64,000 nucleotides of DNA, taken from contig JAVJQW010000003.1 in assembly GCA_040218735.1 (NCBI GenBank), positions 1 through 64,000 of the forward strand, read 5' to 3'. The notes under the pieces were generated by a model. That model was not told where the DNA came from, ran no database searches, and was given only the letters and a program-made list of their open reading frames with translations. This document shows positions 47,460 through 63,999 of this stretch, one piece after another. Numbering within the stretch: position 1 is the first letter of the stretch; every line of letters starts with the position of its first letter. The DNA comes from Deltaproteobacteria bacterium. GTDB taxonomy: Bacteria > Myxococcota > Kuafuiibacteriia > Kuafuiibacteriales > Kuafuiibacteriaceae. Made by a program: the position numbers and the translations under genes.

Positions 47460-47475
47460 CGGAACACCTCTTGCT
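47460..47475 (+). promoter_or_regulatory. sigma54-like promoter
   Basis: CGGAACACCTCTTGCT, GG-N10-GC with TTGCT; start codon 12-15 nt downstream. Confidence 0.45.
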
Positions 47476-47486
47476 CTGGTACGAGG

Positions 47487-47729
47487 GTGATGCGCATCCA
47501 GGCCGAAGCCGCCGTCACCTATACCCGCGTCGAGGACCAACGCGCCGAGACGCTCACCCACGCCGAGCAGGTCGACTTCGTCGCCCGCGAGGTCGAGGGG
47601 GTCTTCCAGGCGATCGTGGAATCGTCGATCCAGCAGATGGAGGCGTACGCCGATCTGCTCGCGTCGGTCACGAAGACGGTCGACGAGTTCCGCCGAGACG
47701 AGGTCGACGACGACGACGACGATCCGTGA
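47487..47729 (+). CDS. Small acidic helical hypothetical protein
   Basis: 80 aa with natural codon bias; VDF..EGVFQAIVESSIQQMEAYADLL amphipathic helix; poly-Asp tail. Confidence 0.65.
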   Translation: MMRIQAEAAVTYTRVEDQRAETLTHAEQVDFVAREVEGVFQAIVESSIQQMEAYADLLASVTKTVDEFRRDEVDDDDDDP

Positions 47730-47778
47730 GCCCGCCCACGTCTTCGCGCCCGTCGCGAACATCGGCGATGATGGCGAC

Positions 47779-48480
47779 GTGCCCCGCCTCCGACTGCTCC
47801 TGACCACGGCGCTCCTCGGCGCCGCCAGCCTCCACTGCGCCTTCCCCGTGGGATCCCGCGCCCGCCCCGCCGAGGCGATGGCCAAGGACCGCATCGCGGT
47901 CGGGGCCGGCGGGCTGGTCCCGCTCGGGTTCGTCGGGCAGCTCGACTTCCCGGGCGACGACAAGGAAGCGACCGACGTCAGCCAGGCCGACGTCGGTGAC
48001 TTCGTCCCGGTGGGTTCTTTCGACTGGGCGATCGGCGACGGTGAGTACGCCGGCGTCGACATCTCCTACACGAAGTTCGGAGCCGGTTACTTCGACCTCG
48101 TCGTCATCAACCCGCGCTTCGAATATCCGTTCGGCGGCAAGGACCGAAACTTCTCGCTCACGTTCGACGCGAACTTCATGTACGCGAACGGCAACAACGA
48201 GGACTTCTCGTTCGCGGCGCCGTTCATGCAACCCATGATGGGTGTGCGCTACTACCTCGACCTGTACCACGTCGGCTTTGTCATCTCGCAGTCGATCGGC
48301 ACGTCGATCATCTCGTTCTACGCACCCGGCGGCATCTCGATCGACGTCCCGATCCGCTTCGGCGAGGGCCTCCCGACGCTGCACTTCATGCCGGAGTTCC
48401 GCTGGGACCCCACCATCTTCGTCGCGGTCGCGCGCTTCGTGATGTTCTCGGCGGGCGGCGTCGTGATGTTGGAGTTCTGA
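47779..48480 (+). CDS. Putative outer-membrane beta-barrel (lipo)protein
   Basis: Signal peptide with Cys; alternating aromatic/hydrophobic strands; terminal Phe. Confidence 0.6.
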   Translation: MPRLRLLLTTALLGAASLHCAFPVGSRARPAEAMAKDRIAVGAGGLVPLGFVGQLDFPGDDKEATDVSQADVGDFVPVGSFDWAIGDGEYAGVDISYTKFGAGYFDLVVINPRFEYPFGGKDRNFSLTFDANFMYANGNNEDFSFAAPFMQPMMGVRYYLDLYHVGFVISQSIGTSIISFYAPGGISIDVPIRFGEGLPTLHFMPEFRWDPTIFVAVARFVMFSAGGVVMLEF

Positions 48481-48487
48481 CCTTCGC

Positions 48488-49276
48488 TCACTTCGTCGGC
48501 GTGAACGGCGTCCGCGGCGGGCGCTTGGGCGCCGCGGGCTTCTTCTCTTCCTCGCGCGACGCCGTCATCGGCGCCTTGACCTTCGGCTCCGTCGGGATCG
48601 CGAGGCGCTTGGCCAACCGCGTCGCCGCGTCGCGCAGGCCGCGGTCCTCACACGGCGCCTTCGCGGTCGCCGCCCAGTCGCCGGTCTCGGTCTTCAGATC
48701 GTAGAGCGTCAGCGCGACGACGCAGCCGTCGTCCGATCCGAACACGCGCGGGACGAGGACGCGCTCCGCCGCGAGCGCGCGGCCGATCTCGATCGCACAC
48801 CGCGCGTCCACACACGCCGCGAGCGACGCCGCCTTCACCTCGCGGTTCGCCTCTTCGATCGCGCGCCGCGGGACGAACCGGAAGCGATCCATCGCGGTGA
48901 GCTCCAGGAACAGCAACGCGTCGAGCGCGTCGACCGTGTTCGGCTCGAGCCCATGCGCCTCGATCGGGAGGAGCGCCACGACCTCGCCGTAGCCGAGCGG
49001 GCTCTCCTTCGCGAGCTGCGCCGCGACCTCGACCTTCAGCGACGCTTCGATCTCTTGACGTCGCGCCGTGCGCTTCTTCCGAAGGGCCGCGGTCTCCACG
49101 TCGCGCTCGTGCGCGCGCAACCTGGCGTCGCGTCCCTCGCGCACCAGCCGCGCGTGCTCCGCGCGCACCTTCGCGCTGCGCCGCGTGCGACCGCTGTTCG
49201 CCTCGCCCACCGCCTGCAAGAAGGTGACGCACCCGGTCTGGCCGACGAGGAGGAGGGCGATCGCCAATCGATTCAT
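48488..49276 (-). CDS. Lipoprotein with TolB-N/CsgG-like domain
   Basis: Lipobox QTGC; VALLP.., C.D..CAIEIGRALAA, LTLYDLKT. Confidence 0.65.
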   Translation of the reverse strand: MNRLAIALLLVGQTGCVTFLQAVGEANSGRTRRSAKVRAEHARLVREGRDARLRAHERDVETAALRKKRTARRQEIEASLKVEVAAQLAKESPLGYGEVVALLPIEAHGLEPNTVDALDALLFLELTAMDRFRFVPRRAIEEANREVKAASLAACVDARCAIEIGRALAAERVLVPRVFGSDDGCVVALTLYDLKTETGDWAATAKAPCEDRGLRDAATRLAKRLAIPTEPKVKAPMTASREEEKKPAAPKRPPRTPFTPTK

Positions 49277-49923
49277 CGCGCGTCCGTCTTCTCCGCCAGC
49301 GAGCGCGCCAAGCGCTCCGAGGCCACGAAGAGATCCATGAGCCGGCACGTGGTGGTCGTCGACGAAGCCCACAGGGTCGTCTCCGTCGCGAGGTCGTAGA
49401 GCGTCGCGCCGAGCTGACACCCGTCCTCCCGGACGAACAGCCCGGGCTCGACGGTGTGGTCCGCGGCGAGGCGACGGCCGAGCTCGATCTGACAGGCCTC
49501 GTCGTAACAAGCGCGGTACGACTGCGTCTTCGCGTCGACCAGCGCCGCGCGCATCCGATCCGGCGGCACCACGCGGTGCGTGGTCCGCTCGAGGAGGGCC
49601 GTCGCGAAGTACGCGGAGAGCTGCTGCGCATCGGCGTGCGACAGCACCGCGTCGTGATCCTCGACGTCGAACACCGCGACGATCGCCCCGTCCCTCGTGG
49701 GACGTTCCTTCTTCATCGCCGCGAGCAACGTCTGCTTACGCCGTGCGCGGTAGCGAGGTTCGTTCGAGAGGTCTTTGGAGACCACGTTGCGCCGCTTCAG
49801 CGCGCGGTAGCTGCTCCTCTTCGCGGCGCGCGTCGCGACGCGCTGGCGCTCGAGCGCATAGTCGGATCGATACGTCGAGGCACACGCCGCGGTCGTCAGC
49901 AGCAACAGCAGGCACCAACGCAC
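49273..49923 (-). CDS. Lipoprotein with TolB-N/CsgG-like domain (paralog of the downstream gene)
   Basis: Lipobox TAAC; VAVFDVE, CYDEACQIELGRRLAA, ATLYDLAT. Confidence 0.65.
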   Translation of the reverse strand: MRWCLLLLLTTAACASTYRSDYALERQRVATRAAKRSSYRALKRRNVVSKDLSNEPRYRARRKQTLLAAMKKERPTRDGAIVAVFDVEDHDAVLSHADAQQLSAYFATALLERTTHRVVPPDRMRAALVDAKTQSYRACYDEACQIELGRRLAADHTVEPGLFVREDGCQLGATLYDLATETTLWASSTTTTCRLMDLFVASERLARSLAEKTDAR

Positions 49924-49984
49924 CGGATCAGCTTAGACGCGCGTCGTACCGGCGGACCACCCCGGGGGGCCGATGCGATGGTCG

Positions 49985-52900
49985 TCACACCCGACGACGG
50001 AACAAGAGCGGCAACACGAGGAGCAACAACGTCCACCCGCGCCCGCGCCCGCGCACACAGCGGCACCCCTGCTCGATCGGCGGCACCGGCGGCGGCGCGT
50101 TCACGAGCAGCGAGAACGGCGCCTGGGCGTAGCGGCCGCGGTCGTCGGTCACCGTCACGAGCACACTCACCACGCCGGTCTGCTGCGGCGTCCCGGCGAT
50201 GGTCAGGATCGGTGCGCCGGCGTTGGGATCGACCGTCCACATGACCCCCTGGTGGAACGCGGGGCCGAGCACGCGCCACGTCAGCGGCGGCTCGCCGCTG
50301 CGCGTCCTCAGCTCGACGGAGTACGGCTCGCCCGCGACGCCGAGCGGCAACGTGCTCGGCGTGATGCTGAAGCCCCCTTCGTGGAGGATCGTCAGCCGGA
50401 ACGTCGCGGTGTCGCTCGTCGCGCCCGCGCCGTTCTCCACCGCGTTCACGAGGAACTCACGCGTGCCCACGCCCTGCGGGATGCCGACGAGGCGCCCGCC
50501 CGGGGAGAGGACGATGCCGTCGGGCAGCGGCCCCGGCGAAGTGAACGTGACGCTCGACGTCGGCGTCTGTCCGATCACCTGCAGCTGATACGTGTACTCG
50601 TCGCCGAGCCGACCGTCCGGGAGGAGCGCCGCGACGATCGTGAGGCGTCCGGGCTCACCGACCGTGAGCACCAGATCCGCGCGCGCGGTATCGGTGCCGT
50701 CGGTGACCTCGACCGTCAGCTCGAAGATGCCGTCCTGACGCGGCACCCCCGTGAGGAGCCCCGACGGATCCATCTCGAGCCCGGGCGGCGGCGTGGTCAC
50801 CAGCGAGAACTGATAGCCGCCGGTCCCCCCCACCGCGACGATGCGCTGTAGCTGATCACTCGTCGCCCCCGCCGGCGCGGGCGGGTACGCGGCGCCGACC
50901 ACGCCGGGGAGCAGGTCGCGCGTGACGATCGCGATCCCCGCGCGCGGGTTCGCGACCTCCAGCGAGAACGTGCGCGTCGCCGAGACGCCGGCGCTGTCGA
51001 CCTGCAGCGTGACGTCCGACGTCACCTCCATCGTCGCGCGGCCGGAGATCTCGCCCGTCGCTGCGTCGAGGGTCAGGCCGTCGGGGAGCGCGCCGCCCGC
51101 GACGGACCAGGTGAAGCGCCCGTCGCCCCCCGCCGCGAAGACAAACGTCGTGTAGTCGACGCCGAGGTACGCACGCGGGAGCGACGCGGTGAGGACTTCG
51201 AGCTGACCGGTGCGAACGGTGAACGGCGCCGCGGCGACGCCGGTGTTCGCGAGGTCGTCGATCTCCAGGTGGTCGTTCGCAGGGTCGACGATCGCGCCGA
51301 GCTCGTAGCGCCCGGGGCGGACGTCGTTCGGGAGCGTGATGCTCCGGGTGATCGTCGCGGTGGCGGAGGGATCGAGCATCACGGTCCCCGCGTCGATCTC
51401 CAAGTCGTCGGCCGTGATGACGACGTTCTCGGACAGCCGCACCGACCACCCGGTGGTCTGACCGATGTTGCCGGTGTTCGCGAGGCGCAGCGTCACGTCG
51501 ATCGTCTCGCCGGGCGCGGCATCGGTCGGGGTGCTCTCGATGGAGACGACCTCGAAGTCGGGGCGGCGCGACGCGATCGTGAACGCGTCCAGCGTGACGG
51601 CGGTGTTGTTGGCTTCGTCGATCTCCGCGACGTCGTCGTCCGCGTCGACCACGAGGATCAGCCGGTAGTCCCCCGGCGGGGTCGGGAGTGGGACGGCGGT
51701 GGTCGCGGTGCGCACCCCCAGCTCGAACGGCGCGAGCGTCGTCGGCGCGGAGCGGTAGACGACGTGGCCGGTCTGCGTGGAGCCCTCGGGCACGAGGTGA
51801 AGCTCGTAGCGGAACGGGCCGAGCACCTGCGACGACAGCGAGTTGATCCGCACGTCGACGTCGAACGGCACCCCCTCGAACACCTGGTCGGGCGCGGTCA
51901 CCGCGGCGGCGACGAGCTCCGGGCCGACGTCCAGACGCGCGCGGAAGAACGCGTTCTCCAAGGCGGCGATATCGGTGCCCGAGCAGTTCGGCGTACACGG
52001 CGCGAGCGTGGCGCCGTTCGATCCCGTCGCGTCCTCGAACCCGATCGACGCCGACCACGCGAGCGGATCCGTCATGCTCAGCACCGGCCCGTAGTGGATC
52101 TCGAAGCGCCCCTCGCGCCCCTCGTACAGGCGCAACTGAACTTGCGGGCGCCCGCTCGTCGCGTTCCCGAGCACGTGCGCGTCGGTGTACTGCAGCACGA
52201 GCACACGGTTCGGCGCGACACCGTCCACACCGAAGTCGATCACCGTCGCGCGGAGGTCGTCCCAGATCGGCGCGATCACCGCGTCCGGCGCGATGCTGCT
52301 GGGGAAGAGGGTGTTGTTGAAGCCAACCGGCCCCGCACCGAACGTGATGTACCCGTTCGTCGTCGCGCGAAGCTGCGTGTACGAGCCACCGAAGTACGTA
52401 AACGCGAACGGGATCGGGATGATGACCTCCTCGTCGTCGTACAGCGGCGGCGGGAACGTCACCTGCGTCAGGTCGCTGCGCGCGACGTACGGCGCGGCGA
52501 TCGTCTCGGTGAAGTACGCCTGCGCCGACGCCTCGTTGGTCACGAGCAGCATCAGCAAGACCCACGGCCACCGCCGCCTCCGGCGCAGCAGCAGCGCACC
52601 GAGCAGCAACCAGGCCCACGCGACGCCGCGGCCCGACGAAGCCTGGCACCCGCACCCGTCGTCGCCGCCACCGTTGGTCGGCGTGATGCGCTCCGACACC
52701 GAGATGCCGAACGCCCGCACGCTCTGCTGACCGAGGTCGTCCTGCGCGAGCACGACGAAGCTGAAGACCCCCACCGAGCGCGGCTCGCCGGTGATCTTGC
52801 CCAGGCCGTCCATCGCGAGCCCCGGCGGCAGGTTGCCGGAGAGGATCGACAGCGTCGGTCGCGCCTGCGCGTTCGCGGCGACCACGTCGATCTGCACCTC

Positions 52901-55900
52901 GGCGCCGTCCTCCTCGACGTACGCTTCGCCGACGAATGCGTCCGGCAGCCCGTTGGTCGAAAAGATCACGCCGTCCTGTTCGCGGATCGTGACGACGAAG
53001 CGGTTCACGTCGAAGTCGCCGCGCCCGTCCGTCACGCGCATCGTGAACGAGTACTCACCGACGCGCGATGGCGTCCCGTAGATCCGCCCGCGCTCGTGGA
53101 GCAGGCCCTCGGGCAACGTCCCCGACACGAGTCCGAACGTGAACGGCGAGACGCCGGACCCCATCGCGGCGCGGACCGTCTCGTCGTACACCGAGCCGAT
53201 CCGTCCGTCCGGGAGGAGCTCGGAGGAGAACCGCACCGTGTCCTGCGACGTCACCACGCGGAGCGCGAGCTCGGCCTCCGCGAAGCCGCCCGTCGCGTCC
53301 TCGACGCGCACCACGAGGTTCGACAGCGCCGTCGCCCCCGGCGTCCCCGAGATGACACCGTCGGCGTCGAGCGTGAGCCCCGGCGGCAAGCCGTCCGCGC
53401 CGACCTCCGACCAGACGAACGGCGGCACCCCGCCGAACGCGGTGAGCGGGTAGCGGTACGGCCGACCGAGGAAGCCAGGCGGCAGCGCGCGCGTGATCAC
53501 CGAGACCTCGACGGCGGTCGGGGCGACGAGCAGGTTGTAGCGGCGCTCCGCGATCAACACGCCGTCGGTGACACGCACCGTGACGTCGAAGAGGCCCTCG
53601 ACCTCGGGGGTGCCGGCGAGCCGGCCACTCGCGTCGAGCGCGAGGCCGGTCGGCAACGCACCGTCCGCGACCGACCACATGAGCGGCCCCGTGCCGCCGC
53701 GCGCGGCGAGCACCACGTCGTACTCGACGGCGAGCGTCGCGAGCGGGAGCGCGTCGGTGAGGATCGTCAGCCCGCTCGGGAGCACCTCGACGGTCGTGGC
53801 CGAGACGGCGACGTTGTTCGACTCCACCAGCTCCGCGACGAGGTCGTCCGGATCCGCAACGACCCCCACGTAGTACGGGCCGGGCGCGAGCGTGGACGGG
53901 ACGACGAACACGTCCACGCGGGTGTGCGCCGTCCCGGCGGAGACGGTGACGGTGCGGCGGCCGGCGCGCACGTCGTTGGCGTCGATCGTGTCGTCGACGG
54001 AGAAGACCACCTCGTACTCCGCGGCGGCGTCCGCGTTGCCGCCGTTGTTGATCATGCGCGCGATCGACATCGACTCCCCGGCGGCCGCGAGCGGCGGCAG
54101 CTCGACGCGCGTCGGCGCGAGGTCCGCGGCGGGGTCGCGCACCTGCACCGGGTCCATGGTGCGCGCGATGTTGTTGTTCGGATTGTCCTCGGCGACGGTA
54201 CTGAGTGTATTCGTGATGACACCGACGTAGTACGGCCCGACCGCGAGCATCGCGGGCACGACGACGTTGTGCACGAACGTCCGACGCTCGCCGGGCGCGA
54301 GGCTGACGGGGCCGAACGAAGCCAGCTCGATGTCCGAGATCGCGCTGATGAGCTGGTTGTCGGAGAGGTAGATCGCGTACGAGAAGCCGTTGGCGTCGGC
54401 GCCGCCGCCGTTTTCGATGTCGACCGACACCTCGAGCACCTCCGCGCGGAACGCAAACGGACCAGGCACGGTGAGCGAGCGCGCGATGATGTCGGCGAGG
54501 CGCACCTCGATCGTCGTGGTGCTCACGCCGACGTTGTTCGTCTCGTCGGCCTCCACGATCGTGTCGTTCGGATCCACTTCGACGATCACGTAGAAGTGAC
54601 CGCCCGTGATGTCGGCCGGCACCGTGAACGTGGTGTCGAAGCGCGTCGCCGGCGTCGCCGGGACCGCGACGGTCGCCGACGCGACGAGGCGATCCTGGGC
54701 GTCGAGCGTCGTGTCCGCCGAGAAGTAGATCGCGTACGGCACGGCGGGGTGCTCACCGCCAAAGTTGAGGAGGTCGACGGGGACGGTGAGCGATTGGTCG
54801 GGGCCGGTCTCGGCCGGCGCGGACACCGAAGCGCCGAAGTCGAGGCCGACCAGGAAGCGGTCCGTGAAGCGCGACGTGTTGTTGGTCTCGATCGTCTCGG
54901 CGACGACGTCGTTCGGGTCGACGATCGCGCCGATCGAATAGTACCCGGACGCCACCACCGGGACGGTCGTCGCGAGGGTCTGCGACGCGGCGGCTCCTGC
55001 GCCGAGGTTGGCGAACGACACGGTCCCGAGGAGCGTGTCGCTCGCTTCGATCGTCCCGTCGGTCGAGAAGTAGACGTTGGCGTCGAACCCCGCGCCGGTC
55101 GGTGCGTTGCCGAGGTTGCGTGCGGTGACGGACACCGAGATCGCGGCGCCGGGCGCGCCGCCGCTCGGCGGTGCGCCGTTGACGGTCAGCTCGGGGCCGA
55201 CGGGGATGACGAACTGAATCACCTGGTCGGTGAGGGACTGGAGTGTGGTGTACGGGCAGAAGTCCGGCGCGACGTCCGCGCACGGTTCGCCGACGAGGCC
55301 GAGGCCGCCCGTGTGGTCCTCGATGCCCATCGTGCCGCTCCACTCGCTGTCGCCGTTGGTGTTCGACACGTACGGGCCGTAGTGCATCGTCACGGCGCCG
55401 GTGAGCTCTTCGAGCCGCACTTGGAACGTCCCGGTCGCGGCGGTCGTCGCCGGGAAGTGCTTCACGTTGCTGTACTCGACGACGAACGAGCGCTGGCCCG
55501 CCGTCCCCTGCGTGGCGTAGCGGACCTGGCCGCCGTCGAGGTGCAGGTCGTCCCACCACAGCGCGATGATGCGATCCGGATCCGCGGTGGCCGGGAGGCC
55601 CCCCGCGCCCGCGCCGACGTTCGGGTAGTCGACGCAGCGGTTGTTGGAGCACTGGGTGCCGAAGGTCAGCGAGCAGTCGAGGAGTGAGTTGCAGGAGGAC
55701 GCGAGGATCAACGCGCCGTTCGTGCTGATGGTGACGTGGGTATACGTCTGGCCGAAGTACTCGAACGTGAAGCCGAGCGGGACCTGCAGGACGTCGTCGT
55801 CCGGCGTCGGGAAGTTGGCGACGGTCGCGCCGGTGAGCGGCACGTAGGGGGCCGCGTACTGCGTCCGAATGTAGCCGCCGGTCTGCGCGACGGCGTGGGT

Positions 55901-55957
55901 CGTCACGACCGAGAGGACGAGCCCGACGAGGGCGCTCAGAGTTCGTTGCGCGCGCAC
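49985..55957 (-). CDS. 1990-aa two-module surface polyprotein: [signal peptide, N-domain, CARDB, Ig repeats, MYXO-CTERM] x2
   Basis: Single ORF; internal GCGC-TM-RRRRR-WPWVLLMLLVTNEASA-QAY at about aa 1100-1146; terminal GCRC-TM-RRRV. Confidence 0.88.
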   Translation of the reverse strand: MRAQRTLSALVGLVLSVVTTHAVAQTGGYIRTQYAAPYVPLTGATVANFPTPDDDVLQVPLGFTFEYFGQTYTHVTISTNGALILASSCNSLLDCSLTFGTQCSNNRCVDYPNVGAGAGGLPATADPDRIIALWWDDLHLDGGQVRYATQGTAGQRSFVVEYSNVKHFPATTAATGTFQVRLEELTGAVTMHYGPYVSNTNGDSEWSGTMGIEDHTGGLGLVGEPCADVAPDFCPYTTLQSLTDQVIQFVIPVGPELTVNGAPPSGGAPGAAISVSVTARNLGNAPTGAGFDANVYFSTDGTIEASDTLLGTVSFANLGAGAAASQTLATTVPVVASGYYSIGAIVDPNDVVAETIETNNTSRFTDRFLVGLDFGASVSAPAETGPDQSLTVPVDLLNFGGEHPAVPYAIYFSADTTLDAQDRLVASATVAVPATPATRFDTTFTVPADITGGHFYVIVEVDPNDTIVEADETNNVGVSTTTIEVRLADIIARSLTVPGPFAFRAEVLEVSVDIENGGGADANGFSYAIYLSDNQLISAISDIELASFGPVSLAPGERRTFVHNVVVPAMLAVGPYYVGVITNTLSTVAEDNPNNNIARTMDPVQVRDPAADLAPTRVELPPLAAAGESMSIARMINNGGNADAAAEYEVVFSVDDTIDANDVRAGRRTVTVSAGTAHTRVDVFVVPSTLAPGPYYVGVVADPDDLVAELVESNNVAVSATTVEVLPSGLTILTDALPLATLAVEYDVVLAARGGTGPLMWSVADGALPTGLALDASGRLAGTPEVEGLFDVTVRVTDGVLIAERRYNLLVAPTAVEVSVITRALPPGFLGRPYRYPLTAFGGVPPFVWSEVGADGLPPGLTLDADGVISGTPGATALSNLVVRVEDATGGFAEAELALRVVTSQDTVRFSSELLPDGRIGSVYDETVRAAMGSGVSPFTFGLVSGTLPEGLLHERGRIYGTPSRVGEYSFTMRVTDGRGDFDVNRFVVTIREQDGVIFSTNGLPDAFVGEAYVEEDGAEVQIDVVAANAQARPTLSILSGNLPPGLAMDGLGKITGEPRSVGVFSFVVLAQDDLGQQSVRAFGISVSERITPTNGGGDDGCGCQASSGRGVAWAWLLLGALLLRRRRRWPWVLLMLLVTNEASAQAYFTETIAAPYVARSDLTQVTFPPPLYDDEEVIIPIPFAFTYFGGSYTQLRATTNGYITFGAGPVGFNNTLFPSSIAPDAVIAPIWDDLRATVIDFGVDGVAPNRVLVLQYTDAHVLGNATSGRPQVQLRLYEGREGRFEIHYGPVLSMTDPLAWSASIGFEDATGSNGATLAPCTPNCSGTDIAALENAFFRARLDVGPELVAAAVTAPDQVFEGVPFDVDVRINSLSSQVLGPFRYELHLVPEGSTQTGHVVYRSAPTTLAPFELGVRTATTAVPLPTPPGDYRLILVVDADDDVAEIDEANNTAVTLDAFTIASRRPDFEVVSIESTPTDAAPGETIDVTLRLANTGNIGQTTGWSVRLSENVVITADDLEIDAGTVMLDPSATATITRSITLPNDVRPGRYELGAIVDPANDHLEIDDLANTGVAAAPFTVRTGQLEVLTASLPRAYLGVDYTTFVFAAGGDGRFTWSVAGGALPDGLTLDAATGEISGRATMEVTSDVTLQVDSAGVSATRTFSLEVANPRAGIAIVTRDLLPGVVGAAYPPAPAGATSDQLQRIVAVGGTGGYQFSLVTTPPPGLEMDPSGLLTGVPRQDGIFELTVEVTDGTDTARADLVLTVGEPGRLTIVAALLPDGRLGDEYTYQLQVIGQTPTSSVTFTSPGPLPDGIVLSPGGRLVGIPQGVGTREFLVNAVENGAGATSDTATFRLTILHEGGFSITPSTLPLGVAGEPYSVELRTRSGEPPLTWRVLGPAFHQGVMWTVDPNAGAPILTIAGTPQQTGVVSVLVTVTDDRGRYAQAPFSLLVNAPPPVPPIEQGCRCVRGRGRGWTLLLLVLPLLFRRRV

Positions 55958-56015
55958 GAGAGCTGGGAGCGTAAGCCCGCCGACACACGACCGTCGAGGG
56001 CGGATCGGCCGGTGC

Positions 56016-58484
56016 TCAACGAACGCGGCGCGGACGAACGGGGATCAGGAGGAGCAGGAGCAACAGGCTCCAGGCGGCCCCGCGCCGTGACGTCGTGGTG
56101 CACCCGCAGCCGCCCTCCTCCTCCACGGGCGGCGGCGGGTCGACCACCACGAGCGGGAACACCGCCTCCGCGACGCGGAGGTTCTTGTCGGTACAGCGCA
56201 CCGTGAACGGCCACGTCCCGCGCGCTTCGGGGACGCCACGAATGAAGAGCGCGTTCGTGGTCTCGTCGCCGTCCTTCTGCGTCGACGTGAGGCCGGGCGG
56301 CAGGAACCCTTCGCTGCGCACGACCTCGCAGAGGAACGGACGCGCGCCGCCGTTGACCTCGATCGTCACGTCGTAGTCCGCACCGAGGACGGCTTCGGGG
56401 ATCCGGTCGGTCGTGATGCGCAACAGGCCGTCGGAGCGCACCACGAGCTCGAGCAGCGAGGTGTCGGTCTGTCCCGCCGCGTCCGTCGCCTGCACCAGGA
56501 ACCGCTGCGGGCCGGCGAGCTCCGGGATGCCGTTCACGAGCCCCTCCTCCGCCACGACGATCCCCGGCGGCAGCTCCGTGAGCACGCGCCACCTGAGCGG
56601 CGGCGTCCCACCCGACGCAAACAGCGTCTGGGTGTAGGGCTCCTGGAGCGTCGCGTCGGGGAGCGCGCCGCTCACGACGGTGAGGTTCCCGGGCGCGCGC
56701 ACCTCGAGGCTGTACGCGACGGTCGCCGTGTTTGCGTCTTCGTCGCTGACCTCGACCGTGAACACCGCGATCCCGGAGGCCCCGGGGACGCCGACGACGT
56801 GCCCGTCGGTGCGCAGCTCGAGGCCGTCCGTCGGGCGCCCCGCGATCGTGCGGAAGCGGTACGGCGGGCGTCCGCCGACGGCGCGCAGCGCGACGTCGTA
56901 GTCCGCGCCGACGTAGCCGTCGGGGAGGTCGCGGGTGACGAGTCGGAGGGGGTAGTCGGGGTCGAGCACGGTGAGCGTGAAGTCGGCAGTGCTCGTCACG
57001 TCACCGCTGCGCACGCGGACGGAGATCGGGTGGTCGCCGACGCCGAGGGGCACGCCGTAGATGCGCCCTCCTTGGAACGCCACGCCGGGCGGGACCGTTC
57101 CACTGGATAGACTCCACACAAAAGAACCATCGCCGCCGGCGGCTTCGAGGGTCACGTCGTAGGGGACGCCGAGGACGGCCACGGGGAGCGACGGAGTCAG
57201 GACCGCGACGTCGTCGGAGATCACCGTCACGGTTTGGCCTGACGCGAGGATGTTGTTCCGTTCGTCGAGCTCCGCGACCGCAAACGCAGGGTCGACGACG
57301 AGGCCGAGGCGGTAGCGGCCGGTCGGGAGCTCGGGGAGCGTCGGGGTGATCGTGGCGGAGCTCGATTCGAGTGAGTCGAGCGTGTACGTCGCGACCGGCC
57401 CGAGGCGGTGGTCCCAGAGGGAGATGGTGTCGTTCTTCGAGAGCACGACCTGCGCGTCGAACGTCGCGGGGACGTTGCCGAAGTTGTCGACGGTGTACGT
57501 CAGCTCGAGCGTCCCACCCGGCGCCGCCGTGGAGGCGCGCGGGACGATGCGTCGCGCCCGAAGGTCCGGGCCGCGCCCGTCGATCGACACCACCCCCGAG
57601 AAGGCGACGTTGTTCGTCTCGTCGATCTCCGCGATCACGTCGGCGGCGTCGATGGTGATCGCGACGCGGTAGTCACCGTCCTGCGTGGCGATCGGTACGA
57701 GCAGATCGAACGACGCCTCCTGCGTCGCGAACCCCGGGAGCGTGACGGGGCCCGACGTGTAGAGCACCGGCGCTCCGACCGTCGACGTCGCCGCAGGGTC
57801 GAGCAGCTGCGCCTGGAACGTGAACGGCCCGAGCGGCATCCCGTGGCGGCTCGCGAGGCGCACCGTGACGGGCAGCGGCCGGCCCGCGACGGTGGTCTCG
57901 TCGGTGCTCACCGCGGTGACGGTGAGATCCTCGCCGATGTCCTCCAGGATCGTGATCTTCGTGTCCTGCAGCGACTGCACCTGCCCGGTGGAGCACGGCG
58001 TCGCGCCGACACACGGCCCGACGAACATCCCCTGGCTCGGGCTCGGCGCTTCGATCCCGATGCGCGCCATGAAGTCAGTGAAGTTGCCGGGCACGTTGAT
58101 CCCCGGGCGCGCCTCGCCGTAGCGCATCTCGATCGTGGAGCGGGCGCCTTCGTAGAGCGTCACCGAGAAATCGACGTCACTCGCCATCGTGTCGTCGGCG
58201 AAGTGCCGAACGTTGCGCCACTCGATCGTGACGCGCCCCGCACCCGGCGTGACGTCGACCTCGTAGTAGATGCCGACGCCCGCGTTCACGAAGCCGACGC
58301 ACCCGTTCACGCTCGAGCACCAGTCGGCCCACAGCGGCGCGACGTAGCCGTTCGGAAAGTCGGTGCTGGGGTTCGTCGCCGGCGGCAGGTGGTAGCCGTT
58401 GGCGTTGTCGAGGACGGAGACCCAGCCGTTTGCGTTGACCCAGATCGTGCTGTACGCCCCGCCGTACAGCGTCACCGAAAAGGG
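56016..58484 (-). CDS. Module B of the second polyprotein (continuation in the -1 frame; no credible start of its own)
   Basis: Begins mid-domain at PFSVTLYGGAYSTIWVNANGWVS, homologous to PFAFTYFGGSY..TNGYI of the paralog; CARDB and Ig repeats; terminal GCGC-TM-RPRRVR. Confidence 0.8.
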   Translation of the reverse strand, partial: PFSVTLYGGAYSTIWVNANGWVSVLDNANGYHLPPATNPSTDFPNGYVAPLWADWCSSVNGCVGFVNAGVGIYYEVDVTPGAGRVTIEWRNVRHFADDTMASDVDFSVTLYEGARSTIEMRYGEARPGINVPGNFTDFMARIGIEAPSPSQGMFVGPCVGATPCSTGQVQSLQDTKITILEDIGEDLTVTAVSTDETTVAGRPLPVTVRLASRHGMPLGPFTFQAQLLDPAATSTVGAPVLYTSGPVTLPGFATQEASFDLLVPIATQDGDYRVAITIDAADVIAEIDETNNVAFSGVVSIDGRGPDLRARRIVPRASTAAPGGTLELTYTVDNFGNVPATFDAQVVLSKNDTISLWDHRLGPVATYTLDSLESSSATITPTLPELPTGRYRLGLVVDPAFAVAELDERNNILASGQTVTVISDDVAVLTPSLPVAVLGVPYDVTLEAAGGDGSFVWSLSSGTVPPGVAFQGGRIYGVPLGVGDHPISVRVRSGDVTSTADFTLTVLDPDYPLRLVTRDLPDGYVGADYDVALRAVGGRPPYRFRTIAGRPTDGLELRTDGHVVGVPGASGIAVFTVEVSDEDANTATVAYSLEVRAPGNLTVVSGALPDATLQEPYTQTLFASGGTPPLRWRVLTELPPGIVVAEEGLVNGIPELAGPQRFLVQATDAAGQTDTSLLELVVRSDGLLRITTDRIPEAVLGADYDVTIEVNGGARPFLCEVVRSEGFLPPGLTSTQKDGDETTNALFIRGVPEARGTWPFTVRCTDKNLRVAEAVFPLVVVDPPPPVEEEGGCGCTTTSRRGAAWSLLLLLLLIPVRPRRVR

Positions 58485-58499
58485 AGCTGGATGGGCTCC
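58449..58499 (-). other. Candidate -1 programmed frameshift signal (or 1-nt indel site)
   Basis: GGAG, 11 nt, C_CCT_TTT, 7 nt, hairpin GCTGTACG-gcgggg-CGTACAGC; 0-frame TGA two codons after the heptamer. Confidence 0.45.
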
Positions 58500-61400
58500 G
58501 TCTGACCGTCGCCGAGCCCCGGCACCATCTCGACCGCACCCGGGCCGAGGTGGACGTAGGGCTCCGGCTCCGTGAGCACCTGGTACGGCGTCTGCGCCGA
58601 CGCCGTGGAGGTGAACAAGACGAAGAGCAGACCAAGCCACGAGCGTCGACGGATCAGCGGGACGAGGAGGAGCAGCAGCCCCCAAGCCGCCGCGCCGCTG
58701 CGACGCGAGGTCGTGCACCCGCACCCGTCGCCGCCGGGGCCGGTGGTGTCGGCGTTGGGATCGCGTACGACGATCGCGAGCGCCTGGCGGCGGGTGTCGT
58801 TGGCGTCGGTGCGCGCGAACGCGACGAACGCGTAGGAGCCGGCTTCGGTCGGCGTGCCGCCGATGATGCCGGTCGACGCTTCGAGTGTGAGCCCCGGCGG
58901 GAGCTCACCCAGCACGACGGACCAGGTGACGTCGGTGGCGGAGGCACGAAGGCGAACCGCCTCGCCGCCCTCCGCCGCGTACGGCTGGTTGAGCGTGGCC
59001 TCGGGGAGCGCGGAGTCCGCGTCCGTGCCCGTGACGATCCTGAGCACCCCCTCGGGCGAGACCTCGAGCACGTACGCGTTGCGATCGATGAGCCCCGCGG
59101 TGTCACGAACCTCGACGAGCAGCGGATAGTCTCCCGCGGTGGTCGGCGTGCCGGTGAAGAGCGCGCCGTTGTCGTCGAAAGTCAGGCCGGGCACCTCGCC
59201 ATCGATGCGCCAGGTGTACGGCGTGCCGCCGCCGACCGCGGTGAACTCGAACGTGTACGGCATCCCGACGATCCCGCCCGCGACGTCCGCCTGCTGAATG
59301 CTCACGGAGGTCCGTGCGTCGACGACGTCGAGCGAGAGCGTCCCCCGCACCGTGGTGCCGTTCGCGTCGGTCACGGAGATCTCGAAGTTGAACGCGTTGA
59401 TCAGCTGCGGCTCGCCACCGAGGATGCCGTCGGAGTCGAGCGCGAGCCCGAAGGGCAGCGGATCGATCGACCGCCACACGTAGGGCGGGTTGCCGCCCAC
59501 CGCGACGAGCTCGACGAAGTACCGCTCCAGCGCGAGCGCCGGCGGGAGCCGCGACGACACCAGCGTCAGCGGGATCGTCGGACCCGAGACGATCAGCGTG
59601 TAACTTCGCGTCGCGAACAAGTCGCCGCTGGTCACCGTGATGTCGAACGGGTGCGAACCCTCCGCGCTCATCGCGGGGGTGCCGCTGATCTCGGCGGTCG
59701 CGGCTTCGAACGTGAGGCCAGCCGGCGGCTGCCCGCCGCCCCAATCGATCGACCACGTGTACGGATCGGACCCGCCGACCGCTGCGAAGCGTCGCGCGTA
59801 GGGCACTCCGAACACCGCGTTCGGCGGCGGGGCGGAGACGACGGCGAGGTCGGTCCCCTCGATGACGATCGACGCCGACGCCAGGGTGTTGTTCTGCTCG
59901 AACGTCTCGTCCGCGACGTCGTCCGGGTCGACGATCGCGCCGATGTAATACGTGCCCGACGGTGTGTCGGCGGGGAGCGGGATCCACTCCGCGACGGTGT
60001 CGATGTCCGACGGGTCCAGCGTCACGGGCATCGCCGTCTCGAAGAGCGTGAGGTCGTCGGTGGTGATGCCGGGGTTGGTCGACAGCACGATGCGCAGCGT
60101 CGCGTCGCCGGAAGCGTTGCCGAGGTTCGCGTAGGTGACCGACACCGGCGTGGTCTCTCCGGCGACGGCGCTCGACACCGTGTCGACGGTGAGCGGCACG
60201 AGGTCGGGCGAAGGATCGCGCACCTCGATCGTCTGCGGGCGGACCTCGGTGTTGTTGGTCTCGAGCGACTCGGGCACCGAGTCCTGACAGTCGTAGACGG
60301 CCGCGATGTACCAAGTGCCGGGCGTCGTCCCCGGCGGGATCGTCGGCTCGAGGAGGAGCGTGCGGCGCTCGTTCGCCTGGAGCGTCATCGGCGCGGTCTC
60401 GAGGATCAGGTCGTCGGTGGCCACCGAGATGACCTGGTTGTCCGAGAGGAAGACACACACCGTGAAGTTGGTCGCGCGCGCGCCGCCGGCGTTTCGGAAC
60501 TCGGTGGAGAGCGGGTACGTCTCGCCGCGGAAGCCGAAGTCCCCGCCCACGAAATCGACGCCGACGAGGTCGGGGCCGCGCACGGAGACGGTGGTCGCGG
60601 AGACGAGGACGTTGTTCCCCTCGTCGAGCTCGATCTGTACGTCCTGATCGTCGAGCACCGCGACCGCGTAGTAACTCGGCGGGCTCGGCGGGATGTTCAG
60701 GGGCATCGTCACCGTGACGGTGCCGTTGAAGCGGAAGCCGTTCGGGAGCGTGACGGACGCGGGTCCCAGCGGGAGCGCCGTCATCATGTCGAAGCTCTGC
60801 GTCGGCGACAGATAGAGCTGCACGCCGATCGGTCCGGTGACCGGCGCGCCGTCGGAGCGCACCGAGAAGTTCACGTTGAACGGCTCGCCGGGGCCGCTGT
60901 CCATCGGCGGGAGGATCGTGCCGGTCAGGTCGGGCGCCGTGCCGAACGGGCCGTCGAAGGAGCGGTTGTTGTCCTCGAGCGCCTCCGTCACGGTGTTGCC
61001 GATGTCGACCTTCAGCGCGATGTAGAACTCGCCGAGCGCCGTCCCGGCGGGGACGGTGAGCGTGCGGGTCTGCTGTACCGAAGAGGCCGCCGCGAGGCCC
61101 GCGACGCCGAACGTTCCGAGGACCGCGCTGCCCGCCGTGCTCGTGTTCGTCGGCGCGAGGTAGATGCCGTACTGGAACGGGCCGACCGGCTGCTGGCCGC
61201 TGTTGAAGATCGTGACCTGCACGTCGAACATCTGGTTGGGACGTGCGCCGGCGGGCGCGGTGATCGTGCCGGTGAGCTCCGGCGCGACCGGGAGCTGGAT
61301 GTCGATCGTCTGCCCCTCGACCCAGTTCGGCGTCCCGCACCGCGAGGGGAGGCAGGCGCAGGCCGCGCCGCAGGTCGGGGACATCGACATGAGGTTGATG

Positions 61401-62020
61401 CCGTCGTTGCCGGTGGCGTTCTCGATCGCGGTGGTCCCGCCGTTCTGCGGGTTCCAGCCGCTGTTGGGCCCGAACTGGATCTGCACCGCGTTGGTGCCCT
61501 CGTAGAGGCGCACTTGGAAGTTCACCTGCGCCGCCGACGCGGAGAAACCGACGAAGTCCTCGTACTGAATCTCCATCACGCGCGACCCGGCGGTGCCGGT
61601 GACGCGCGATCGAATGACGCCGTTCGGCTGCGCGGTGAGGTCGTGCCACATCACGCCGATGAAGTTGTGCACGAGGTTGCCGGGGCTCGGCACGACGGAG
61701 GGCTGTCGCAGCGGTCCGAGCAACGTGCCGGGCGGCGGCGAGAAGCTCAGCAGCCCGTTCGTGTACGCGTGCACCGTGTTGTAGGTCTGGCCGTAGAAAA
61801 TGAACGGGAACGGCAGCGCGATCGCGACCGAGCCTTCGTCCTCGGCGCCGAACGATCCGTACGCGACGGGCGTGTGCGTCGTCCCGCCCGTGAACGCGAC
61901 GTACGTGCCGGTGGAGTGCGAGACTTGGTAGGGGGTCTGGGCGAGCGCGTTCGCGCTCAGCGTGAGGGTCGCGAGGCCCGCCAGCGCGAGGCGGGCCATC
62001 CAGTGCGTTTCGAGGCTCAT
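58472..62020 (-). CDS. Module A of the second polyprotein (signal peptide, N-domain, CARDB, Ig repeats, internal MYXO-CTERM, second signal peptide, start of module B)
   Basis: ANALA-QTPYQV N-terminus; internal GCGCTT-TM-RRR-SWLGLLFVLFTSTASA-QTPYQV. Confidence 0.88.
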   Translation of the reverse strand: MSLETHWMARLALAGLATLTLSANALAQTPYQVSHSTGTYVAFTGGTTHTPVAYGSFGAEDEGSVAIALPFPFIFYGQTYNTVHAYTNGLLSFSPPPGTLLGPLRQPSVVPSPGNLVHNFIGVMWHDLTAQPNGVIRSRVTGTAGSRVMEIQYEDFVGFSASAAQVNFQVRLYEGTNAVQIQFGPNSGWNPQNGGTTAIENATGNDGINLMSMSPTCGAACACLPSRCGTPNWVEGQTIDIQLPVAPELTGTITAPAGARPNQMFDVQVTIFNSGQQPVGPFQYGIYLAPTNTSTAGSAVLGTFGVAGLAAASSVQQTRTLTVPAGTALGEFYIALKVDIGNTVTEALEDNNRSFDGPFGTAPDLTGTILPPMDSGPGEPFNVNFSVRSDGAPVTGPIGVQLYLSPTQSFDMMTALPLGPASVTLPNGFRFNGTVTVTMPLNIPPSPPSYYAVAVLDDQDVQIELDEGNNVLVSATTVSVRGPDLVGVDFVGGDFGFRGETYPLSTEFRNAGGARATNFTVCVFLSDNQVISVATDDLILETAPMTLQANERRTLLLEPTIPPGTTPGTWYIAAVYDCQDSVPESLETNNTEVRPQTIEVRDPSPDLVPLTVDTVSSAVAGETTPVSVTYANLGNASGDATLRIVLSTNPGITTDDLTLFETAMPVTLDPSDIDTVAEWIPLPADTPSGTYYIGAIVDPDDVADETFEQNNTLASASIVIEGTDLAVVSAPPPNAVFGVPYARRFAAVGGSDPYTWSIDWGGGQPPAGLTFEAATAEISGTPAMSAEGSHPFDITVTSGDLFATRSYTLIVSGPTIPLTLVSSRLPPALALERYFVELVAVGGNPPYVWRSIDPLPFGLALDSDGILGGEPQLINAFNFEISVTDANGTTVRGTLSLDVVDARTSVSIQQADVAGGIVGMPYTFEFTAVGGGTPYTWRIDGEVPGLTFDDNGALFTGTPTTAGDYPLLVEVRDTAGLIDRNAYVLEVSPEGVLRIVTGTDADSALPEATLNQPYAAEGGEAVRLRASATDVTWSVVLGELPPGLTLEASTGIIGGTPTEAGSYAFVAFARTDANDTRRQALAIVVRDPNADTTGPGGDGCGCTTSRRSGAAAWGLLLLLVPLIRRRSWLGLLFVLFTSTASAQTPYQVLTEPEPYVHLGPGAVEMVPGLGDGQTEPIQLPFR

Positions 62021-62043: not shown

Positions 62044-63999
62044 CTACAAACACTCGGCGCGGTAGGTGATGACGATCTCGGAACCGGGTTCGGGGATCGC
62101 GAGCGGCGCGAAGTTCAGGCTGTTGGTCATGTCGTCGTAGGTCCAGCGGACCTGCCCGGTCATCGAGGTCGCCGCGACGGGCACGCCGTCGATCAGCACC
62201 TGCACCGACGCGGGGATCGGTTGGTTGGAGAGGAAGAAGCGCGACTTGTAGCCGAAGACGGACAGGCCGAGGTTCTCCAGCGCGACCGCCCAGTCCGTCG
62301 TGCAGATCGACTCGACGACGCCGCCGGTCTGCTGCGCGGTGTCGACGTACCGGAAGCCGGGGTCACCGCTGGCGCACCCGTTGGGGACGTCGCCGACGAT
62401 CGCCGAGGCCGAGAACAGGTTGGTGTTCCTGAAGCCCTTGATGGCGCGGAAGTAGTTCACGAAGAAGTCGACGGTGTTCAGCGACTGGTCGTCCTCGTCG
62501 GCGATGAAGATCAGCGCGAGGTACGCGTCGGGGCGGAGGAAGCCGGCGTTCCACCCGGTGATGCGCGGGCTCGACAGTGCGTTGTACGCCGCCTGCAACC
62601 CGCGCTCGGCACCCGAGCCGTTGATGCCCTGCGTGGCGATCGCCCGGAACGCCGCCGCGGGGGACGGCTGCTCGTCCGGCGTGATCAGGCGCCAGTCGGG
62701 ATCGGTCTGCCCGGACGCGCTGCCGTCCGCGAAGTAACCGCAGCGGCCCTGCGCCATCCCCGGCGGCCGGTCGGCCGGCGGCGGGTTCGGGCAGGCGTCG
62801 CCGTCGGTCGAGACCACGGCGATGCGGTAGTCGAGCGCCTGCGCTTCGGCGAACGCGATGAAGCTGTCGAAGTTCTGCGTGAGGCTCGCCTGCTCCGCAG
62901 ACATCGAGCAGGAGTTGTCGATGACGAAGAGGATGTCGACCTCCGGCGTCTCGAGCTGCTCGAAGTGATCCTCGTTCGTCGCGACCTTCGCGCCTTCGCC
63001 GAACAGCGGGACGACGTAGGGCGTCGTCGCGCCCGACTCGTAGAGGTGGAAGTAACCGGTGTCGGCGCCGATCGCGCTCGGCGCGTAGCGCACCGACAGC
63101 TCGATCGAAGCGCCCGGCGCGATGGGCGCCCCCGGCGGGCCCGGCACGCCGGCCGGGATGTTCTCGATGATGAACTCACTCGTGACGCCGGGCGGGAGCT
63201 CGATGCGATCGATGTACGTGTTGGTCGCGCCGGTGTTGTAGACCGTGACGGTGCGCGCGCGCGTGGAGCAGCCGGGCTCGACGAGGCCGAAGTCGATCTC
63301 GTTGGGCGAGATCAGCAGCACGGACTCGGCGCCCTCTCCACTCAAGGCAACGCGCGGGTTCGAGTCGTTCGGGTCCGAGATGTAGAAGCCGAGCTCCCCG
63401 GTGTGATTGCCGACGTCGCGCGGCGTGTAGTCGACGAGCACCGTGAGCGTCTCGCCCGCGGCGAGCGTGAGGCTCGCGGGCGGTGCTTCGATCAGCGAGA
63501 AGGAGCGGTCCGAACCGGCGAGGACCTCGACGTCGCTGACCAGGCAGTCGTCGGTCCCGACGTTCTGCACGCGGAGCCCCTGCGGGATGCTGCGGAGCAC
63601 CTCCACGACACCGAACCCGAGCTGCGTCGGCGCGACGGTGTACTGACACGGCGGGAGCACGACGCCCTCCCCGCTCAGTGGGATGGTGACGACCGGCTCG
63701 TCGGCGTCGTCGCTCTCGATCACGAGCTCGGAGTCGATCACCCCTGCGTCCGTGACGGTGAGCGTGACCTCGACGAACTCGGCGCCGCCCGGCGGGATGG
63801 TGAGCGTGGTCTGGTCGGCGACGAAGAGGCCCGTTCCGGACGCGTCGGGATCGATGCGCGACACCGAGAGGTCGTCGAAGCCGAGGTTGGTCACGAGCAC
63901 GCGGCGTTTCTTCGCGGTGCCGACGGCGACCTGTCCGAACGCGAGGGTGTCCGGCGTGACGACGATGTTCGGACCGCCCGCCTCGCCGACCAGCGTGAC
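62044..63999 (-). CDS. ASH/choice-of-anchor D-like Ig-repeat protein with C-terminal vWA domain (partial, runs off the right edge)
   Basis: Repeated P..L.FG.V..N.G; MIDAS DILFVIDNSCSM, ERGLQAA, FIADEDDQS; the frame stays open to the window edge. Confidence 0.85.
   Translation of the reverse strand, partial: VTLVGEAGGPNIVVTPDTLAFGQVAVGTAKKRRVLVTNLGFDDLSVSRIDPDASGTGLFVADQTTLTIPPGGAEFVEVTLTVTDAGVIDSELVIESDDADEPVVTIPLSGEGVVLPPCQYTVAPTQLGFGVVEVLRSIPQGLRVQNVGTDDCLVSDVEVLAGSDRSFSLIEAPPASLTLAAGETLTVLVDYTPRDVGNHTGELGFYISDPNDSNPRVALSGEGAESVLLISPNEIDFGLVEPGCSTRARTVTVYNTGATNTYIDRIELPPGVTSEFIIENIPAGVPGPPGAPIAPGASIELSVRYAPSAIGADTGYFHLYESGATTPYVVPLFGEGAKVATNEDHFEQLETPEVDILFVIDNSCSMSAEQASLTQNFDSFIAFAEAQALDYRIAVVSTDGDACPNPPPADRPPGMAQGRCGYFADGSASGQTDPDWRLITPDEQPSPAAAFRAIATQGINGSGAERGLQAAYNALSSPRITGWNAGFLRPDAYLALIFIADEDDQSLNTVDFFVNYFRAIKGFRNTNLFSASAIVGDVPNGCASGDPGFRYVDTAQQTGGVVESICTTDWAVALENLGLSVFGYKSRFFLSNQPIPASVQVLIDGVPVAATSMTGQVRWTYDDMTNSLNFAPLAIPEPGSEIVITYRAECL

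Follow-up and report, generated by a model that had tools for sequence, protein, structure and literature searches.

Can a protein-sorting signal that is defined by its place at the C terminus also work in the middle of a polypeptide? The question is raised by a 64,000-nucleotide (nt) stretch of contig JAVJQW010000003.1 from a myxobacterial genome (hereafter the window), where two neighboring genes on the minus strand each chain two adhesin-like surface modules. Between the modules lies a MYXO-CTERM element, consisting of a Cys motif, a helix, and an Arg cluster, which runs without a break into a second signal-peptide-like segment. We find that this junction is a conserved feature and not a chance loss of a stop codon, and the best-supported reading, which agrees with the mechanism offered in the original prediction, is that the locus probably encodes a polyprotein that is threaded through Sec and cut by signal peptidase I and myxosortase. 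The same prediction had described two intact polyproteins, and this holds for only one of the genes, as the upstream gene requires a −1 change of frame.

The downstream gene (49985–55957, minus strand) is a single open reading frame (ORF) of 1,990 amino acids (aa), and the same protein occurs whole in the protein collection. It opens with a signal-peptide-like segment (55886–55957, minus strand; called from a hydrophobic [h-] region and the −3/−1 rule by our own heuristic), followed by an N-terminal domain of ∼250 aa (the N-domain) and by CARDB and He_PIG repeats identified with Pfam, which together make up module A2. The junction follows at aa 1099 to 1145 (nt 52523–52663), with no stop codon anywhere in it. 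Its first part is an internal MYXO-CTERM with a Cys motif, a helix, and five Arg residues (aa 1099 to 1129; 52571–52663, minus strand), which scores 21.3 bits against TIGR03901 in the whole protein and 25.7 bits as a 54-aa piece (cutoff, 20 bits), as well as 22.8 bits against TIGR03382 (cutoff, 15.85). Its second part is a signal-peptide-like segment with an h-region and a small-x-small site (aa 1130 to 1145; 52523–52570, minus strand), and the predicted cleavage, between 52523 and 52522, leaves Gln in first position. Module B2 then repeats the series of N-domain, CARDB, and He_PIG and ends in a Cys-helix-Arg tail. A mid-protein MYXO-CTERM leading into a second signal-peptide-like segment within one uninterrupted ORF, as had been proposed from the letters alone, is thus borne out by both the sequence and the TIGR03901 scores.

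The upstream gene carries the same junction. Its frame 0 (58472–62020, minus strand) encodes module A1, again with CARDB and He_PIG by Pfam, then the junction and the first 40 codons of module B1, and ends at a TGA (58474–58472). A 99% identical protein of 1,182 aa, P0188, starts from the ATG at 62020 and stops at the same point; residue numbers for this ORF are counted here from the ORF start at 62053. The N-terminal signal-peptide-like segment of A1 (61940–62020, minus strand; same heuristic and rule) has a predicted cut at small-x-small/Gln. The junction spans aa 1108 to 1153 (nt 58595–58732) and comprises an internal MYXO-CTERM with a Cys motif, a helix, and three Arg residues (58643–58732, minus strand; 22.2 bits as a piece and 16.2 bits in the whole ORF) and a signal-peptide-like segment identified by junction anatomy (58595–58642, minus strand; predicted cleavage between 58595 and 58594). 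Both internal elements therefore pass the TIGR03901 cutoff as pieces, and in whole-protein scans the downstream gene alone does so. The second predicted mature N terminus of the upstream gene was said to repeat the first exactly, and their first six residues are indeed identical.

Compared feature by feature, the internal elements fit everything in the MYXO-CTERM sequence definition except terminal position. Both have the invariant Cys in a Gly-Cys-Gly-Cys type motif, an uncharged transmembrane helix, and a basic cluster within the range of two to five residues (five Arg downstream, three upstream). They are followed by 857 to 861 further residues in the downstream gene and by 56 residues in frame 0 plus 819 in frame −1 in the upstream gene; the tails of B1 and of the single-module relative P0040, described below, are terminal. 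The segments that follow show the anatomy of signal peptides in both junctions, with a basic n-region, a short h-region, a polar c-region, and small residues at −3 and −1, and both genes have a hydrophobic region with an Ala-x-Ala site at their N termini by the same heuristic. The internal segments depart from the usual N-terminal position of signal peptides, beginning at residue 1130 in the downstream gene and 1138 (from 62053) in the upstream gene.

How widely is this arrangement kept? A word-indexed protein search with the junction region as the query recovered 10 proteins of 1,988 to 2,338 aa that cover 55 to 100% of the query at 29 to 60% identity, and in all 10 a Cys-helix-Arg element leads, within a single ORF, into a hydrophobic stretch and a small-x-small site. 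The junction plus the N-domain (361 aa) was used in an exhaustive HMMER search against 1.84 billion cluster representatives (50% identity), which gave 6,885 matches at an E value of ≤0.001; the best 150 of these were examined. Internal elements were located with a profile trained solely on 62 C-terminal tails (score of ≥7). This census yielded 66 internal elements in 56 proteins, including the two in the window (P0001 and P0002), from a query that itself held the junction and so is biased toward fused forms. After all but one of the 66 comes a hydrophobic region with either a small-x-small site (61 elements) or a lipobox (4 elements, one of which, in P0053, reads on inspection as a signal peptidase I site further along); the single exception is a near-terminal element with a long tail. 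The original prediction had suggested searching Myxococcota proteomes for an internal MYXO-CTERM followed by an h-region and AxA. The junction is present in at least 50 of the best 150 representatives, once per protein in 48 cases, twice in 6, and three times in 2. The latter, P0043 (4,011 aa) and P0044 (4,029 aa), encode four modules behind an N-terminal signal peptide and end in a terminal MYXO-CTERM. When TIGR03901 was run on 21 of the 54 junction-bearing homologs from outside the window, chosen to stay within a limit on residues, the best-scoring stretch was internal in 12 and C terminal in 6, with no row at an E value of ≤0.01 in the other 3.

These numbers bear on whether the fusions are accidents, that is, recent losses of stop codons, assembly errors, or decaying pseudogenes. 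Two observations could be read that way: the upstream gene of the window is frameshifted, and one related locus (L002), in a metagenome-assembled genome (MAG) with long contigs, has frame breaks elsewhere in its gene. The junction, however, persists in relatives of 60 to 29% identity and in at least 50 of 150 cluster representatives drawn from many assemblies, the GC content at third codon positions is 0.87 to 0.94, the ratio of nonsynonymous to synonymous substitution rates (dN/dS) is ∼0.3, and the Cys and Arg columns are invariant in an alignment of seven sequences, so that we consider an accidental origin scarcely credible. The argument made in advance from two diverged paralogs is much strengthened, since 66 internal elements, ORFs with as many as three junctions and four modules, and orthologous junctions found both fused and split are not what chance loss of stop codons would leave behind.

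If the second hydrophobic stretch is a signal peptide, its cleavage site should look like that of the N-terminal signal peptides in the same proteins. The predicted +1 residue is Gln at 55 of 61 internal and 39 of 46 N-terminal sites, and the −1 residue is Ala at 60 of 61 and 45 of 46, respectively, with sites called by a heuristic of our own that rewards Ala at −1 and −3 and Gln at +1. Because the site picker favors these residues, we also counted the bare motif A.AQ, which occurs within 45 aa after 53 of the 66 internal elements versus 1.45% of 101,641 background windows from the same proteins. In eight relatives (P0017, P0051, P0120, P0134, P0136, P0140, P0167, and P0169), the hydrophobic stretch after a further junction ends in a lipobox-type Cys, so that a lipoprotein signal takes the place of one for signal peptidase I. 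These lipobox variants argue that the segments are real signal peptides, as they are hard to explain unless the segments act as such. The third module in these eight relatives is unrelated and often Cys rich, and one ORF would there mix products anchored through MYXO-CTERM with products anchored through a lipobox.

The same data speak to the possibility that the second stretch is never cut and instead stays in the membrane as a permanent helix, yielding one large inner-membrane protein with two periplasmic arms, the first of which myxosortase may still release. Two hydrophobic stretches joined by a short Arg loop do resemble a helical hairpin. The second stretch, however, is short and gives way to a polar c-region, small-x-small/Gln marks 55 of 61 internal sites just as it marks N-terminal signal peptides, the lipobox variants make sense solely if the segment is processed, and in split orthologs the corresponding position, measured from the domain, is occupied by a true N-terminal signal peptide. 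We therefore regard an uncleaved hairpin as improbable.

The comparison of fused and split states adds a further line of evidence. A locus scan with a seven-row alignment and one genome per species returned 79 loci, named here by L numbers. The boundary between A1 and B1 is fused in the window and in L002 and is split in L003; that between B1 and A2 is fused in L002, P0043, and P0044 and split in the window, L001, and L003; and that between A2 and B2 is fused in the window, L002, L003, and L005, with no split case seen. In L003, the TGA stop of A1 overlaps the ATG of B1 (ATGA), an arrangement of translationally coupled genes, and B1 begins with its own Met, a basic residue, and a signal peptide. 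The MAG of L003 has a second locus, L004, with one more fused two-module ORF, and L005 has A1 and a fused two-module ORF and no B1. In L002 (6995–18709), a stop-to-stop frame of 3,905 aa contains three junctions; since it begins inside the A1 N-domain and ends out of frame, the reading frame of this gene is broken at both ends in this long-contig MAG, and P0043 and P0044 give a cleaner view of a four-module chain. A tree of 122 N-domains resolves orthology groups for A1, B1, A2, and B2 (starred supports of 99, 100, 95, and 99, respectively), and stand-alone B-type proteins with signal peptides of their own (P0066, P0094, P0110, P0163, P0173, and P0176) fall singly within post-junction clades, with seven state changes for seven rows (local supports of 84 to 99, not all starred). 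A junction that is exchanged for a stop and a start while the same mature N terminus is retained is what would be expected if the fused chain is cut there.

Could module B instead be translated separately from an internal start codon, so that the fusion is only apparent? Eight fused junctions were read as DNA for this purpose (two in the window, three in L002, and one each in L003, L004, and L005). In three of them a GTG or TTG lies in frame ≤8 codons before the Arg cluster, and in L003 the GTG directly adjoins it. In addition, the Arg codons of the downstream junction in the window form a Shine-Dalgarno-like GGAGG. That GGAGG, however, is at least 18 nt from the next in-frame start, and in the other five junctions ATG, GTG, or TTG occurs in frame solely inside or after the hydrophobic stretch. 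Between the Cys motif and the cleavage site of the upstream junction in the window, neither ATG nor GTG occurs in frame, and there is a single TTG near the end of the hydrophobic region. Ribosomes arriving from upstream, meeting no stop codon, would continue into module B regardless. Internal initiation may occur at the three junctions with a start-type codon before the Arg cluster and is unlikely to explain the family in general, and a product made wholly by separate translation strikes us as very improbable.

The proposed polyprotein would work as follows. Two or more modules would be translated as one chain, whose N-terminal signal peptide would begin Sec export of module A. The MYXO-CTERM helix would halt transfer and leave the Arg cluster in the cytoplasm, and the short hydrophobic stretch that comes next, for which this Arg cluster would double as the n-region, would reenter the translocon with its N terminus inside and its C terminus outside and restart export. 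Signal peptidase I would cut past the small-x-small site and free the N terminus of module B, in most cases Gln, while the myxosortase MrtX would remove each MYXO-CTERM helix once its Cys is lipidated. A type II secretion system would then bring the modules, by now separate and lipid anchored, to the cell surface, and what remains would be a small peptide of two helices. Sec export, anchoring by the helix, lipidation of Cys, cleavage by MrtX, and type II secretion are steps of the published MYXO-CTERM model, as laid out in passages of PMC11980579, and the reengagement of an internal signal peptide is the step that we would add to it. The double role proposed in the original prediction for the shared Arg cluster, as sorting-signal tail and n-region, agrees with the junction anatomy and with the comparison among relatives. 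Anatomy, conservation, and interchange of fused and split states can be read directly from the genes compared here, from which we infer topology, both cleavages, and surface sorting.

Several results weigh against this mechanism. The C-terminal tail of B2 (49988–50071, minus strand) is a divergent MYXO-CTERM-like Cys-helix-Arg tail recognized by pattern and by our own profile, and when scanned alone with TIGR03901 it gives no row at an E value of ≤0.01, whereas both internal elements pass the cutoff as pieces; the second domain series that had been claimed for this gene is therefore present, with a weaker final MYXO-CTERM than was supposed. Pfam scans of the larger ORFs in the 64-kb window returned no row for CPBP, the family of myxosortase (MrtX). 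An AlphaFold2 model of the junction plus the N-domain of module B (361 aa, 14-row alignment) has an overall mean predicted local distance difference test (pLDDT) score of 78.6; it is confident over the domain and poor over the junction, with values of <50 at residues 33 to 52 and 75 to 86 of the piece. To these must be added the leanings of the census query and of the site picker and the three junctions with a start-type codon just before the Arg cluster.

How much of this has a precedent? The arrangement had been thought undescribed, and for the internal position alone this does not hold: Guo, Haft and Wall (2025, mBio; PMC11980579) note internal MYXO-CTERM motifs in rare ORFs, with MXAN_5598 of Myxococcus xanthus as the example. 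According to passages of that paper, MXAN_5598 has an adhesin region followed by an internal MYXO-CTERM, after which come an outer-membrane barrel and an OmpA domain. Its authors suggest that two genes have fused, draw a parallel with traA and traB, whose ORFs overlap, and propose processing and surface anchoring of the N-terminal part. Going by these descriptions, MXAN_5598 resembles the window genes in having a MYXO-CTERM mid-ORF behind a large adhesin-like region and differs in that its C-terminal part is an outer-membrane β-barrel with OmpA, where the window genes have a second homologous MYXO-CTERM module. The main-text Discussion and related passages of PMC11980579 do not mention a second signal peptide, multimodule chains, or family-wide conservation. 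A literature search found no description of tandem homologous MYXO-CTERM modules, with the supplement of PMC11980579, which may list more internal cases, outside its reach; nor did it find lipobox variants, a frameshift, a signal peptide placed directly against the Arg tail, or junctions that are fused in some genomes and split in others. Ordinary carriers of C-terminal MYXO-CTERM share the tripartite element, the N-terminal signal peptide, and the occurrence of several such proteins per locus, whereas here the element is internal and its Arg tail is common to the following signal peptide.

Processing of a sortase-type signal inside a protein has been seen elsewhere. As cited in passages of PMC11980579, alongside a study of LPXTG, a substrate of ArtA in Haloferax volcanii (Abdul Halim et al., 2017, J Bacteriol) has a tripartite signal that is not C terminal and is processed within the protein, and it offers a precedent for the processing of an internal signal. 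It differs in being archaeal and in its enzyme and motif. This substrate is not known to have a following signal peptide or a second exported module. The overall layout resembles that of glycoprotein polyproteins of enveloped viruses, such as the Gn/Gc precursor of bunyaviruses (PMC5113920), in which host signal peptidase cuts an internal signal sequence that comes after a membrane anchor. As in the viruses, a stop-transfer helix, a short cytoplasmic turn, and an internal signal peptide would serve here to make several surface proteins from one chain. The flavivirus prM/E polyprotein has a similar arrangement of anchor plus internal signal. The viral systems differ in belonging to viruses and to the eukaryotic endoplasmic reticulum, in lacking homology to the genes described here, and in having neither a second cleavage of the sortase type nor lipid anchoring.

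What, then, of the upstream gene, which is not one ORF? Frame 0 stops 40 codons past the predicted cleavage site, and module B1 continues in the −1 frame (56016–58478, minus strand) to a MYXO-CTERM tail (56019–56114; 28.2 bits against TIGR03901) and a stop codon (56016–56018). The point at which homology switches from frame 0 to frame −1 is a heptamer of the canonical form X XXY YYZ (C CCT TTT, or C CCU UUU in RNA; 58478–58484, minus strand) in frame 0 register, with codons at 58483–58481 and 58480–58478. The crossing is colinear and without a gap relative to the in-frame relative P0071. The heptamer occurs in 2 copies in the 64 kb versus 0.85 expected, and 7 nt after the one at the crossing lies a predicted hairpin with an 8-bp stem and a 6-nt loop (58449–58470, minus strand; −15.1 kcal/mol; z = −1.95). 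A search of Rfam matched no family around the frameshift site.

The break is shared by relatives. The same end of frame 0 is found in P0188, which is 99% identical and has 7 member sequences, and in P0190, which is 79% identical and comes from an NCBI source, and B1 is called from one and the same −1-frame residue in P0206, P0207, and P0208 (100, 84, and 76% identical). The last three form one clade (starred support of 99) whose sister, P0071, is an in-frame fusion (starred support of 98); P0208 probably lies on one contig with P0004. Over 798 codons, B1 and its counterpart in L001 have a synonymous divergence (dS) of 0.56, a dN/dS of 0.31, and no stops, the dN/dS for A2 being 0.30. We take the ratio of 0.31 without stops to mean that B1 is translated and constrained. 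L001 is the closest of the 79 loci (77.5% identical over module A2; best segment, 78%) and informs on neither the frameshift site nor the downstream junction, because it starts ∼25 codons past the former and ends inside the latter. A homopolymer error in sequencing was considered as the cause and rejected on account of the shared ends and starts in relatives, the in-frame sister, and the dN/dS.

B1's sole predicted export signal lies upstream, in frame 0, and under the polyprotein mechanism B1 would be joined to it solely through a −1 shift at 58484–58478 and would be made in a lower amount than A1. A break that is kept at 76 to 84% identity with both frames apparently under selection is a candidate for programmed −1 frameshifting, and we regard a programmed shift as the leading reading of the break, with chances that we judge to be about even. 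The frameshift also makes the fixed stoichiometry claimed in the original prediction doubtful for this gene. Some points speak against programming. Support for the hairpin is modest, as 10 of 200 shuffled sequences fold as well and the fold of 100 nt has a z of +1.14. Conservation of the break is seen at the protein level, in ends called by gene finders. Finally, a −1-frame GTG overlaps the frame 0 stop (GTGA, 58475–58472), which would permit reinitiation.

These points are also the basis for a different account of the upstream gene alone, in which the break is not programmed and B1 is either produced by reinitiation at the GTG without an export signal or is a recently dead remnant, so that A1 alone matters. 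Beyond the GTGA overlap and the weak hairpin statistics, it draws on gene calls from three genomes, in all of which B1 is made to start at that GTG. The GTG, however, falls inside a β-strand of a confidently modeled domain (block-mean pLDDT of 78 to 96 over most of it), and reinitiation would give a product that has no signal peptide and yet keeps a MYXO-CTERM of 28.2 bits. Purifying selection on B1 equals that on A2, and the break is kept across lineages at 76 to 84% identity next to the in-frame sister P0071. An unprogrammed break, whether bypassed by reinitiation or simply tolerated, thus appears to us rather unlikely, if still to be taken seriously.

A programmed shift at this site would have company among viruses. 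According to passages of preprints, C CCU UUU is the slip site of West Nile virus, and a distance of 45 residues has been reported as near optimal for force-stimulated −1 frameshifting in Sindbis virus. By our own count, 45 residues separate the A-site codon from the final hydrophobic residue of the internal signal peptide, so that both the heptamer and the distance equal those given for the viruses, and here, as there, the site would lie within a secretory polyprotein. The differences are that a bacterial ribosome and Sec are involved here and that the hairpin is plain with weak statistics. The equality of distance may be a coincidence, because the fold of the domain fixes the spacing. As a tentative analogy, to which we give less than even weight, the bacterium might make surface proteins in the manner of viral glycoproteins, with the conserved −1 frameshift 45 residues past the hydrophobic core setting how often B1 is made and the pull of membrane insertion perhaps tuning the shift. 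The frameshift is the most novel part of the locus, and the conserved break is a candidate in which programmed −1 frameshifting could be tested in a secretory gene of cellular origin, with a geometry that matches the force-stimulated alphavirus case.

What would follow for sorting signals more generally? C-terminal sorting signals of sortases, exosortases, and myxosortases are defined by terminal position, and annotation pipelines apply that rule, whereas in this family MYXO-CTERM can apparently serve as routine internal punctuation. If the cleavages are real, one bacterial ORF would yield two to four separately lipid-anchored surface proteins, and such ORFs would be misannotated as single giant proteins. 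Signal peptidase I would then naturally act at internal sites, as host signal peptidase does on viral polyproteins, and the family would provide natural myxosortase substrates with a nonterminal helix.

The two genes belong to a conserved Myxococcota cluster of adhesin-like surface proteins whose module is N-domain, CARDB, He_PIG, and MYXO-CTERM. Along the minus strand (42105–63999), the order is an Ig-like protein, A1, B1, A2, B2, a lipoprotein, and a single-module MYXO-CTERM protein, and this order is shared at 35 to 63% identity by the MAG loci L002, L003, and L005, which are labeled deltaproteobacterial or myxococcal. The Ig-like protein, of the HYDIN/VesB type (62044–63999, minus strand), is open at the end of the window and syntenic in L002, L003, and L005 at 54 to 63% identity. 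The lipoprotein (∼44151–45650) has HYDIN-type Ig and PKD domains. The single-module relative P0040 (42105–44126, minus strand) has a signal peptide, CARDB, He_PIG, and a C-terminal MYXO-CTERM of 23.6 bits against TIGR03901. In all, the window holds five MYXO-CTERM elements, every one within this protein family.

The N-domain (for example, 51790–52519 in the window) is found far beyond the junctions and is very widespread, as judged by the 6,885 HMMER matches given above. It also occurs in loci labeled Actinomycetota, Bacteroidota, Chloroflexota, and others (among L010 to L079), and 167 of 327 domain hits are internal tandem repeats without any junction. Pfam gives a weak NIDO row of 17 bits (cutoff, 25), and a Foldseek search of the N-domain model against the PDB gave no match at an E value of ≤0.001 (best, 0.021; template modeling score, ≤0.17).

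Between B2 and the lipoprotein (45771–49932), the window contains genes that are absent from this position in L002 and L005, namely, a plus-strand gene of the esterase family (45771–47390), a plus-strand ORF of no assigned family (47491–48477), and a small minus-strand ORF with a lipobox-like N terminus (49273–49932). Elsewhere in the window, a minus-strand ORF of 695 aa (38343–40430) combines ArgJ and amino-acid-kinase domains and adjoins a semialdehyde dehydrogenase gene (40427–41419), and a large minus-strand gene of the bacterial α-2-macroglobulin-like type (32372–37951) has MG2, bMG3, bMG5, bait-region, A2M, and bMG10 domains. At 3970–10736, four paralogous NHL-repeat genes of the teneurin-NHL type stand side by side on both strands.

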